Sequence record: PQ569716.1
From: Klebsiella phage vB_Kpn_K7_rec17
DNA length: 64,000 nucleotides
Direction: 5' to 3' (one strand)
The notes beneath the pieces are model-generated. The model was not told the DNA's origin. It saw only the letters and a list, made by a program, of their open reading frames with translations, and did not search any database. A program made the translations under genes and the position numbers. This document shows positions 36,525 to 38,295 of the stretch, piece by piece. Position 1 is the stretch's first letter. Every line of letters begins with the position of its first letter.

Positions 36525-36986
36525 ATGAAAGCAGCCATTCTAATGATCTCCATCCTCACTAGCTTCCATGCGCAGGCAAAGATTGATGCGCATGAGATAG
36601 AGTGCATAGCTAAAAATGTGTACTTTGAAGCTAGAGGGGAAGGAGTTAAAGGAATGACCGCAGTTGCACAAGTAACGAAAAATCGTGTTAACTATGGAAA
36701 ATTCCCGTCCACATATTGTAAAGTAGTCTATCAACCAGGGCAGTTCAGCTGGGTTGGTAAAAAGAAACATAAACTCGATCGTAAAGACGAAGAGTGGAAA
36801 CAAGCTAAAGAGATAGCTAGACTAGTTTACTATATGGATCTTCCAGTAGATCCGACGAAGGGAGCCTTGTATTTTCACAGTAAGGATACTAAACCTTACT
36901 GGACAAAGGACAAGGACTTCAAAAGAACAAGTAAAATTGGCAACCATGTGTTTTATAAATTAAAATCTCAGTTGCCTAATGCTTAA
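36525..36986 (+). CDS. SleB-like cell wall hydrolase with signal peptide
   Basis: 153 aa; N-terminal signal MKAAILMISILTSFHAQA; Hydrolase_2/SleB signature VYFEARGEGVKGMTAVAQVTKNRV. Confidence 0.7.
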   Translation: MKAAILMISILTSFHAQAKIDAHEIECIAKNVYFEARGEGVKGMTAVAQVTKNRVNYGKFPSTYCKVVYQPGQFSWVGKKKHKLDRKDEEWKQAKEIARLVYYMDLPVDPTKGALYFHSKDTKPYWTKDKDFKRTSKIGNHVFYKLKSQLPNA

Positions 36987-37000
36987 AAAGTTGATATAAT
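36972..37000 (+). promoter_or_regulatory. T5-type promoter (TTGCCT-17-TATAAT) firing into ORF-free region
   Basis: consensus spacing; followed by AGTTTCATAAATTAGAGAGAAC but no ORF. Confidence 0.55.
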
Positions 37001-38295
37001 AGTTTCATAAATTAGAGAGAACAGCGGGCCGATTACGCTGAACTTGTTTTAATGTAAGACTCGTCGAGCATTAAGATTCGTTGAATAGAATCGGTGAGTT
37101 AAGAGTGATCACCTGACAAAGTTCGTGCATCCAGTCCGGATACCGGTCAGGGAGCGTATTGGACGGGCGTAGGTTAGAGATCTCTTGTAAAACTCGGGAG
37201 CTGTCCCGGAGTCTCGTAAACTCTTCTCCTGATTTATAGAAAATGGTGGAATCTCACTTTAACCTGTTCGACCAGAATGAAGCATGGTGCGTGGCCTGCC
37301 GGAGAGGTGGGGAGCTGAGCCTGAGAAACTCGTATAGCTCCCACACTGACCTGCCTAGGCCGCAAATTGGAGACATGTGTATAGCGTCTGGTGCTAGTTA
37401 TTGCCGCCATAGTGGGGTGTCGAAATCACTTATGTAGCAACACTGCCGTCCTAGTATAATGGGCATTATCATGGCGTAACTGCCGGAAGATGCAGGTTCA
37501 AGTCCTGCGGTCGGAAAGAGCTAGATAACTGATGGTTCTATTGGCGAACCACTCGCTGCTGGAGTACCTCCTCCCCTCCCAGGAAAAGACTTGGGAGACT
37601 CGCGGGAACGAAACAGCTAAACCACGAGGAAACCTGACGGCCTCAACCAAACTCGGAACTTCGGAGGGTTGCCACCACCTAAACCGATTTGAACGTAAGA
37701 GTGGCAGGTGCTAAGCGACCATACGCTGGAAGGCTAGAGATAGCCAAACTTCACATCGAAAATTCGGAGGTGTGATTTTAACAGACCGCGTGGAGGATGG
37801 CTCTCCAGAAGTGCCAAAACTAGTCCTTAAATACGGCATGATGATCGTATGAACTTTGGCGAGGTGGGATCTCGCCTGACTCTAAGTGGGAAAGAGTATT
37901 CGGATAACCGTTCGTACAAACGGTCGCTCCGAGACCTAAGTGGGACACGGCTGAGTATACAGCTCCGCGGAAGCTCGTATACCCTGTGTAAGCATGTGAC
38001 AATGGAGTCATGACCGGAGTCACCCCGAGCGAAAGCATAACCACTATTTATAGCACCCTTACACAGGCTAGAAGTGCCCCTGTTTGGAGTGTGCCCTCGC
38101 CTAGACCGCATTAGCCAACGGATATCCGTTGGCCGGGATCTGGCAAGGTATATTAGTCACCTTGACTATAACTGGAAGATATGTCTGACAGTAGTGCGTA
38201 CCAATGAGACGCTTAATGAGGGGATTCGTCCTTCGCTACTGGCGGTATCTTTAAGAGCTTTTACGAGAGTTCTTAAAGATACTAATTGACGAGGT
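37001..38295 (+). ncRNA. candidate large structured non-coding RNA(s), about 1.3 kb, unknown class
   Basis: No ORF with ribosome-binding site; GC about 50 percent vs about 40 percent in flanks; many local hairpins (e.g. GGGAGCT...AGCTCCC, GCCAACGG atat CCGTTGGC, CCTGAC...GTCAGG enclosing CCGGataCCGG); T-arm-like GCAGGTTCAAGTCCTGC at about 37485. Confidence 0.4.

Follow-up and report, generated by a model that had tools for sequence, protein, structure and literature searches.

An enlarged ortholog of the T5 stable RNA RNAX, with a stalked tRNA-like core, at the head of a Klebsiella phage tRNA cluster

An RNAX ortholog in a Klebsiella phage

The 64,000-nucleotide stretch of the Klebsiella phage vB_Kpn_K7_rec17 analysed here (sequence record PQ569716.1, hereafter the window) contains, at the head of its tRNA cluster, a region of about 1.3 kb which an initial annotation, made from the letters alone, had taken for a large structured non-coding RNA (ncRNA) driven by a strong early promoter. 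We find that this region is, with near certainty, a non-coding structured RNA and the Klebsiella-phage ortholog of RNAX, an RNA annotated in phage T5. The initial proposal is thus upheld: the region is non-coding, it is better conserved than a neighbouring gene, and compensatory base changes are abundant in it. In the T5 RefSeq record NC_005859 (40848..41566, complement), rnaX (T5s08) is a misc_RNA of 719 nucleotides (nt) that carries the description “stable RNA with unknown functions”; its promoter is P 16-17, and its end coincides exactly with the 5' end of tRNA-Arg. This annotation dates back some twenty years, so that the existence of RNAX is no novelty; the RNA of the window is a new, enlarged member of a known, uncharacterised family. 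The searchable literature yielded no paper describing RNAX, the one full-text match for “RNAX” having no occurrence of the name in its main text. What is new here, and undescribed in the sources that could be searched, is the structure of this RNA, with its tRNA mimic on a stalk, together with its growth by modules and its conservation throughout the family.

The orthology relies on position and on shared parts. Like T5 rnaX, the RNA of the window lies on the same strand, downstream of the cell-wall hydrolase/lysis block, at the head of the tRNA cluster and upstream of tRNA-Arg(UCU); the same synteny is found at 15 further loci, where tRNA-Arg(UCU) is always the next RNA gene. Together with this synteny, the shared promoter, core and 3' hairpin make it the ortholog of T5 RNAX, and it carries all that characterizes the family: its own promoter with the helix P1 at the first transcribed bases, a stalked tRNA-like core, the motifs of the 3' domain and the terminal hairpin. 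The two RNAs nevertheless differ in size (719 nt as annotated in T5, about 1.28 kb in the window) and in content. T5 has a bare P1 hairpin instead of the domain D1, lacks the domain D2, has other modules in the middle, carries a duplicated AGUCACCUUGACU-AACUGGAA unit, and has tRNA-Arg directly adjacent, while in the window inserted open reading frames (ORFs) separate the two. What the Klebsiella version has in excess of T5 is D1, D2, additional modules in the middle and an insertion at ~38045-38154. Whole domains have thus been added, in helix loops or between domains, as is typical of the peripheral elements of large RNAs. A third domain of this kind, D3, is present in some relatives but not in the window.

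All features of the RNA lie on the + strand. A dedicated early promoter of T5 type (36972..37000) precedes it, with a -35 box TTGCCT (36972-36977), a 17-nt spacer containing TG and a -10 box TATAAT (36995-37000); in a consensus promoter scan it matches at 10 of 12 positions and has an extended -10 (TG). The initial annotation had called it near-consensus with a conserved start region, and rightly so: the arrangement TATAAT-N5-CATAAAT recurs at five promoters of the window (33688, 34995, 36995 for RNAX, 52680 and 62546) and precedes all the homologs examined but two, in which a homing-endonuclease ORF occupies the site; the equivalent site is the one labelled promoter P 16-17 in the T5 record. 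CATAAAT appears to be the conserved initial transcribed sequence of the early promoters of this phage, and it doubles as one strand of the 5'-terminal helix P1. Transcription would start at about 37007, within CATAAATT, so that the whole RNA spans 37007..38285, about 1279 nt from this presumed start to just past the terminal hairpin (38245-38282). The hairpin is followed by GAGG (38291-38294) and by the ATG at 38300 of an ORF of 108 amino acids (aa), with ribosome-binding site and ATG within 18 nt; the segment thus ends, as first noted, just before the next translation start. The first of the 25 tRNA genes, tRNA-Arg, lies at 38807. The GC content, initially put about 10 points above the phage average, is indeed elevated (49.6%, in the top 0.7% of same-sized windows), but the excess over the whole window (45.3%) is 4 points, and a gap of some 10 points is seen only in comparison with the AT-rich sequence immediately on either side.

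A string of separately closed domains

RNAX is built as a string of domains, each closed on its own: P1, D1, D2, the stalked core, a mosaic middle, the 3' domain and the terminal hairpin. Its folding energy is ordinary: the minimum free energy (MFE) z-scores of 200-nt windows range from +0.5 to -1.9 across the body of the RNA, and only the window of the terminal hairpin reaches -5.5. The case for structure therefore rests on covariation, not on stability. The region had been described as packed with helices; all the helices then listed are present, and two of them, GGGAGCT/AGCTCCC and CGGGA-gctg-TCCCG, covary in relatives, but by folding energy there is no excess over chance, and GCCAACGG-atat-CCGTTGGC (38114-38133) is a lineage-specific hairpin. 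Covariation was counted as changes on both sides of a pair, and the controls were partner strands slid by 1-3 columns and 500 shuffles. The analysis across T5-like phages that the initial annotation had proposed shows compensatory changes in abundance, which pass both the shuffle and the slide controls.

Strongly negative folding z-scores occur besides inside the cell-wall hydrolase gene (36525-36986, Pfam Hydrolase_2), the upstream neighbour of RNAX: for the 200-nt window 36500-36699 they are -5.7 (+ strand) and -4.0 (- strand), values that no part of the RNAX body reaches.

Conservation, and the absence of genuine ORFs

The claim that the stretch holds no genuine ORF stands. The longest ORF on the + strand has 64 aa (ATG) or 71 aa (GTG) and the longest on the - strand 94 aa, while shuffled sequence gives a longest ORF of 93 +/- 24 aa, 43% of the shuffles attaining the observed length; moreover, the ORFs of the region are conserved in near-identical relatives only. 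Many GenBank records of relatives lay three to six “hypothetical protein” coding sequences (CDSs) over RNAX (matches to 36900-38400 of the window), or give the tRNA-like part a label such as tRNA-OTHER, Sec, Undet, Ser or Leu. These CDSs and odd tRNA labels are likely annotation artefacts.

Identity to T5 reaches 85% in the RNAX core and 92% in the terminal hairpin, as compared with 88% in the tRNA genes and 67.5% in the adjoining endolysin gene. RNAX is thus conserved on a par with tRNA genes and above the endolysin, which indicates that the region is under selection. In a scan of Rfam (release 15), also proposed initially, tRNA was the only family hit, both in the window (E<=1) and in four divergent homologs (E<=0.5). 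A group I or group II intron, already thought unlikely, can be rejected: no Rfam intron model matches, and the flanking genes are complete and unrelated.

The core and its tRNA-like element

The core domain (37412..37625) comprises GUGGGGUG (37412-37419), a stalk, the tRNA-like element, the hairpins H3 (37534-37550) and H4 (GCUG 37555-37558 with CAGC 37614-37617), and AAACCAC (37619-37625). The stalk, of about 13 bp (37425..37533; 37425-37438 with 37520-37533), encloses the tRNA-like element, to which it is joined by an invariant internal loop made of AACACU (37439-37444) on the 5' side and AAGA (37516-37519) on the 3' side. Twelve pairs of the stalk were scored, seven of which show two-sided changes, and 99% of the cells are paired in 30 distinct sequences. 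Plausibly, GUGG (37412-37415) pairs with CCAC (37622-37625) to close the domain; this would be a helix of only 4 bp, but two-sided changes are seen in two groups of lineages, AUGG/CCAU in YZU-L1 and KKP3711 and ACGG/CCGU in My1 and DU_PP_V.

For the segment that begins with the upstream strand of the stalk and extends through the downstream hairpin, RNAalifold finds 31 pairs in 12 lineages, 16 of them with two-sided compensatory changes; the paired cells amount to 97%, as compared with 27-44% after sliding by 1-3 columns, and none of the 500 shuffles attains the observed values. The covariance model that we built from this alignment of 12 lineages, R1, finds a single copy in the window (37409-37561, 179.8 bits) and scores 173.3 bits in T5; in every T5-like locus its score lies between 109 and 184 bits, as compared with at most 31 bits on ordinary tRNAs. 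In an R1-based alignment of 30 distinct sequences, 98.8% of the cells are paired and 17 pairs covary. Taken over both alignments, sliding leaves 26-44% of the cells paired, and again not one of 500 shuffles comes up to the observed value.

The T-arm-like GCAGGTTCAAGTCCTGC reported in the initial annotation proves to be part of a complete tRNA-like fold (37445..37516), with an acceptor stem, a D-arm with GG, a 6-nt “anticodon” loop and a canonical T-arm (GGUUCAAGUCC), a U at position -1 and no CCA. We rejected the idea that it is a functional tRNA: besides the 6-nt loop, its acceptor stem has conserved G1.A72 and U5.U68 mismatches, the CCA encoded by all 25 real tRNA genes of the window is missing, the Rfam tRNA model (RF00005) gives it 26.6 bits, below the gathering score of 29, and ARAGORN makes no tRNA call at 37445-37516. 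In four divergent homologs the element scores 29-38 bits. As homologs thus straddle the Rfam threshold, their inconsistent annotation as tRNA-OTHER, Sec, Undet or Leu is readily explained.

Natural variants tell which parts of the element matter. The D-arm is missing from one of our loci (L245), a long hairpin replaces the anticodon arm in two others (L236 and L239), and in Salmonella phage KFSSM one hairpin stands for both arms; the acceptor stem, T-arm, internal loop and stalk, as well as U(-1)/G(+1), persist in all the variants. That the D and anticodon arms are dispensable while the acceptor/T-arm half is always kept suggests a selection on the “elbow” half, not on decoding. The tRNA-like element would thus be a mimic, unable to decode.

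Acceptor/T-arm mimics within larger RNAs are known to engage the machineries that recognise or process tRNAs, as do those of tmRNA, of the bacterial Y RNA YrlA and of the MALAT1 mascRNA (see also PMC4201824). The tmRNA differs in that the two ends of the RNA form its acceptor stem, whereas the acceptor of RNAX runs into the stalk and has no free 3' end unless cleaved; neither Rfam nor ARAGORN found a tmRNA in the window, and there was no Y RNA match either. A published consensus for double T-loop docking at the elbow requires one AG..A and one UG..A pentaloop (PMC3664808). RNAX has invariant UGGGA and UGGAA, but an AG..A partner is not conserved (AGAUA in the window is AAAUA in T5).

A 24.5-bit full-length match to R1 at tRNA-Arg was considered as a second stalked element and discarded, as it is a plain tRNA followed by a strong hairpin (38890-38921; CGCUGCCCAC, 12 nt, GUGGGCAGCG), which lies directly after tRNA-Arg and has no U-tract. 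This weak match hints that the core may have arisen from a tRNA-plus-hairpin unit.

The variable 5' domains

D1 (37007..37236) is closed by the 5'-terminal helix P1 (37007-37021 with 37223-37236) and contains a conserved hairpin CAGCG/CGCUG, the motif UGAAUAGARUCGGUGAGUU, and the hairpins CCGG-aua-CCGG and CGGGA-gcug-UCCCG. P1, which begins at the first transcribed nucleotides, forms in all 14 lineages examined, with a mean of -12.1 kcal/mol against -4.3 for shuffled partners. In T5, AKFV33 and L042, D1 is reduced to the bare P1 hairpin, with a compensatory change from GAGA/UCUC to GAUG/CAUC. For D1 as a whole, RNAalifold on 12 lineages gives 26 pairs, 8 of them covarying, and the support comes mostly from invariant long-range pairs.

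D2 (37243..37410) is a nested, rod-like domain closed by AUGGUGG (37243-37249) with CCGCCAU (37404-37410), and includes GGGAGCU/AGCUCCC; it is missing from the T5-type versions. In the 7 lineages aligned, RNAalifold gives 47 pairs, 19 of them with two-sided changes; 90.7% of the cells are paired as compared with 31-41% after sliding, and no shuffle out of 500 attains the observed value. The closing helix itself is CGAUGG/CCAUCG, UAGCGG/CCGCUA or UGUGG/CCACA elsewhere, as against AUGGUGG/CCGCCAU in the window.

In two phages, Salmonella phage KFSSM (locus L101, 1511-1993) and KKP_3831 (locus L106, 716-1198), an HNH homing-endonuclease ORF occupies the D1/D2 site, directly upstream of the core, and the RNAX promoter motif is missing within 700 nt. 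This replacement indicates that the variable 5' site is a hotspot for insertion and that the 5' domains are dispensable.

The middle region, the 3' domain and the terminal hairpin

The variable middle (37626..37885) is a mosaic of hairpin modules gained, lost or exchanged among lineages; in 16 lineages they are present or absent in differing combinations. In the hairpin at ~37753-37777, UCACAUC-gaaaauucgga-GGUGUGA, a compensatory change is seen relative to UCGCAUC/GGUGCGA elsewhere.

The conserved 3' domain (37886..38285) starts with GUGGGAAA (37886-37893) and contains AUAACCAC (38037-38044), AGUCACCUUGACU (38155-38167) and AACUGGAA (38170-38177). It holds most of the invariant single-stranded motifs of the RNA, those of the domain being common to all lineages. 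The Klebsiella-specific insertion (~38045-38154), with the hairpin 38114-38133, lies within it. In T5 rnaX the AGUCACCUUGACU-AACUGGAA module is duplicated in tandem, with copies about 85 nt apart. Whole-length MAFFT alignments of this domain (A2, A3 and A6) mis-register Klebsiella and T5 around the insertions, and RNAalifold recovers fragments only, so that we relied on anchored analyses of each lineage. Folds made lineage by lineage show a recurring topology. Before the terminal hairpin, a long-range helix (38187-38195 with 38235-38243) has a mean of 7.7 of 9 pairs, as compared with 5.7 with shuffled partners, and three types of pairs occur at three of its positions.

A hairpin of this domain (37996..38023) displays GGAGUCAUGACC (38004-38015) on an outer stem GUGAC (37996-38000)/GUCAC (38019-38023) and an inner GG/CC. 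Independent folding recovers it in 12 of 16 lineages from unrelated outer-stem sequences, and GGAGUCAUGACC, of which the window has a single copy, is unchanged in 15 of the 16, the exception being My1 (GUCAUGCC). The 8-nt loop, AGUCAUGA (38006-38013), contains the self-complementary UCAUGA; the loop self-duplex is calculated at -5.0 kcal/mol for 6 nt and -10.4 for 8 nt.

The 3'-terminal hairpin (38245..38282), with a 15-bp stem and an 8-nt loop, is near-invariant: 92-97% identical across relatives, and still 97% out to the Pectobacterium phage My1. The top of its stem varies between GAGCU/AGUUC, GAGUU/AACUC and GGACU/AGUCU; these changes from G.U to G-C or A-U fit pairing in an RNA of the + strand only. 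We discarded the possibility of an intrinsic terminator, the stem being AU-rich and followed by UAAUUGACGAGG with no U-tract, and a terminator consensus scan being silent. The distance from the hairpin to the 5' end of tRNA-Arg is 4-5 nt in T5. In My1 (locus L007, 3038-3583) a GIY-YIG-like ORF (Pfam T5orf172/MUG113) lies between the RNAX hairpin and tRNA-Arg, overlapping the annotated tRNA.

Distribution of the family

The region is 100% identical to that of vB_Kpn_K30lambda2.2 and about 96% identical to that of Sugarland, its source being a T5-like Klebsiella phage. A BLAST search of phage genomes hits 527 records of T5-like phages, with matches that are distributed patchily: a core of ~130 nt is present in nearly all the matching records at ~85% identity, and the interval from the core to the hairpin varies greatly in length. 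Among the loci that we extracted, the shortest RNA has 651 nt (AKFV33-like) and the longest 1339 nt, the copy of the window being among the largest. The core was seen in Tequintavirus, in Epseptimavirus, in Sugarlandvirus-like Klebsiella phages, in unclassified Markadamsvirinae (Pantoea, Enterobacter) and in Mccorquodalevirinae (My1, DU_PP_V), and seems confined to T5-like phages of enterobacteria. A scan of metagenomes with a specific signature returned 12 true loci, all T5-like, and in the Vibrio phage pVp-1 (T5-like, Ermolyevavirinae) no RNAX core was found in the 50 kb scanned, which included the tRNA region. In that phage (locus L247, 37974-45583) ARAGORN finds 22 tRNA genes filling the ORF-free gaps, and the RefSeq record has no tRNA features. 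A looser pattern applied to bacterial genomes, AACACTGCC-N(35-60)-GGTTCRANTCC, has ordinary tRNAs of unrelated bacteria among the matches listed, and was set aside as uninformative on the distribution.

Other stable RNAs accompany phage tRNA genes. The tRNA cluster of phage T4 carries two small ones. The T5 record lists seven more among its tRNA genes, within T5 22000-36500 (RNAIII, RNAI, RNA1, RNA2H, RNAIV, RNA2 and RNA3; 73-172 nt), three of which, RNA1, RNA2 and RNA3, of 73-144 nt, are called tRNA-like. RNAX resembles them as a stable RNA which is not a tRNA, among phage tRNA genes, and partly tRNA-like, but is 4-17 times larger and multi-domain.

Possible role of RNAX

The explanation that accounts best for these data, and which we hold to be probable, is that the region encodes an RNAX ortholog, a large structured ncRNA that is made early, released from the transcript of the tRNA cluster, and perhaps used as a tRNA-mimic decoy or scaffold. 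Since no terminator follows the terminal hairpin, transcription would run on into the tRNA cluster, and the tRNA-processing nucleases of the host would then release RNAX, a route that we consider likely. In T5, where the hairpin lies 4-5 nt from tRNA-Arg, cleavage of this tRNA by RNase P would at the same time create the 3' end of RNAX. The helices that lock both ends could shield the RNA from exonucleases and from decay that depends on the 5' end, and such a stability would agree with the “stable RNA” label of T5. RNAX may then present its acceptor/T-arm elbow as a decoy or scaffold to a host factor that recognises the shape of tRNAs, the conserved 3' domain supplying the remaining surface for binding or assembly. 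We put forward this last function, decoy or scaffold, only as a guess that is less likely than not to be right. The T5 tRNA region has been documented to carry anti-defence functions (bioRxiv 10.1101/2023.03.15.532788); the T5 anti-defence island of ~8 kb, described without coordinates, may or may not include rnaX. Two T5 candidates were examined in this context and dismissed: Rad, the anti-retron factor, is a TOPRIM protein from a different locus, and T5.081 (“YqeY-like / tRNA amidotransferase”), considered as an obligate partner, has no Pfam support and is found neither in the window nor in the Klebsiella and Eos loci.

Several observations weigh against this explanation. Folding energies are unremarkable, and the MFE z-scores do not separate the body of the RNA from its flanks. 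In some phages D1 and D2 are swapped for a homing-endonuclease gene, with loss of the promoter motif. For the middle region, the support consists of compensations seen by eye. The qualification as stable RNA seems to go back to the T5 annotation alone, behind which we found no paper, and nothing in these data appears to link RNAX to any particular host factor. Besides, the covarying stalk could equally be a processing stalk, the tRNA-like piece being excised rather than displayed.

This last point leads to the alternative of a precursor cassette, in which the long transcript is only a processing intermediate and the functional products are small RNAs, the tRNA-like element and perhaps other pieces, cut out of it by RNase P and 3' nucleases. 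The stalk would then be comparable to the processing stalks flanking rRNAs, and the products to the small tRNA-like stable RNAs of T5. An acceptor/T-arm minihelix is the minimal substrate of RNase P, and precisely such a minihelix, with U(-1)/G(+1), is the invariant part of the element; its flanks are base-paired, and RNA1, RNA2 and RNA3 provide, at 73-144 nt, a precedent in T5 for products of this kind. However, T5 annotates RNAX as a single species of 719 nt, the element lacks the CCA that 25 of 25 real tRNAs possess and keeps mismatches at the pair close to the cleavage site, and the invariant internal loop exceeds what a cleavage site needs. A 72-nt product would moreover leave the conserved 3' domain and the end-protecting helices unexplained. 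We consider this possibility rather unlikely, though it is the one among the rivals to which we give the most weight.

GOLLD and ROOL, to which the initial annotation had compared the region, are large structured RNAs of phages and prophages, of unknown function and often beside tRNA islands. In GOLLD the 3' region is conserved and the 5' region variable, a tRNA is sometimes found in the linker, and kissing loops aid assembly. The comparison holds for layout and context: RNAX too is phage-encoded at a tRNA island, conserved in 3' and variable in 5', with an internal tRNA-like element and a self-complementary loop. It fails for homology, as neither the window, searched at E<=1, nor four divergent homologs, searched at E<=0.5, match the GOLLD and ROOL covariance models of Rfam. 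The phages that carry RNAX are lytic, T5-like and specific to enterobacteria, and the modules of RNAX are closed one after the other, the loop being the only hint of multimerisation. One may nevertheless imagine that RNAX multimerises, via this loop and other contacts, into a self-assembling, RNA-only particle, possibly engaging tRNAs or ribosomes. Apart from the GOLLD/ROOL-like layout, the display of the invariant loop AGUCAUGA on covarying stems speaks for such a particle. Against it, no match to the GOLLD or ROOL models was obtained, the self-pairing of the loop is weak (-5 kcal/mol for 6 nt) and its palindrome is broken in My1, a palindromic hexamer among about 8 invariant motifs is expected by accident in roughly 10% of cases, and the beads-on-a-string layout is unlike the intertwined folds described for ROOL. 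We regard this assembly as improbable. A broader and quite speculative version, which we would not hold to be much better founded, makes RNAX a third, independent class of giant phage RNA, filling the role of GOLLD and ROOL in enterobacterial phages: it would self-assemble via the loop, and its elbow would capture or mislead a host factor that recognises tRNAs.

The region could also act in cis, as a 5' untranslated leader controlling the expression or processing of the 108-aa ORF at 38300 and of tRNA-Arg. No terminator precedes the downstream genes, the ribosome-binding site and ATG follow within 18 nt of the hairpin, and tRNA-Arg(UCU) is always the next RNA gene. However, what comes immediately downstream differs, tRNA-Arg directly in T5, AKFV33 and Seafire, and elsewhere either unrelated ORFs without a Pfam family or a GIY-YIG-like mobile ORF, and this variation between lineages weakens the idea of a leader. 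In addition, 650-1340 nt with more than 15 conserved helices go far beyond known bacterial leaders, and T5 annotates RNAX as a stable RNA in its own right; we hold a leader to be very improbable. Finally, the region might not be an RNA gene at all, but decayed genes or tRNA pseudogenes, a hidden gene for a small protein, or an element acting as DNA (an origin, a recombination site, palindromes binding a protein). The three to six hypothetical CDSs of the annotators would fit, the terminal hairpin and GTCATGAC are palindromic as DNA too, a pseudogene may underlie the tRNA-like element, and homing endonucleases insert there in some phages. Yet the ORFs are of chance length and not conserved, a dedicated promoter is conserved, and the core is as well conserved as real tRNAs. 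Above all, this possibility is contradicted by covariation: dozens of compensatory changes keep the pairing, including G.U pairs that are valid in an RNA of the + strand only. We find it hardly credible.

Significance

Bacteria and phages rarely have structured ncRNAs of more than ~600 nt, and those that are known proved to be ribozymes or RNA-only assemblies. T5, which has RNAX, is among the oldest model phages, and hundreds of its relatives, including phages of Klebsiella, Salmonella and E. coli, have this RNA too, yet RNAX has no Rfam family, and most GenBank records hide it under false “hypothetical protein” genes or an odd “tRNA-OTHER”. The present analysis provides a domain map, a covariance model of the core, and natural variants which mark the essentials of this RNA, namely the stalked acceptor/T-arm mimic, the 3' domain and the end helices. 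In the annotation of T5-like phages, the false protein calls should be swapped for an RNA gene. As T5 and E. coli are genetically tractable, the function of RNAX is directly testable. If it were indeed a third class of giant phage RNA, RNAX would be an RNA-based device for counter-defence or for the control of translation, standing at the head of the tRNA island of T5-like phages, whose target might be, for example, a defence nuclease, a processing enzyme or the ribosome.

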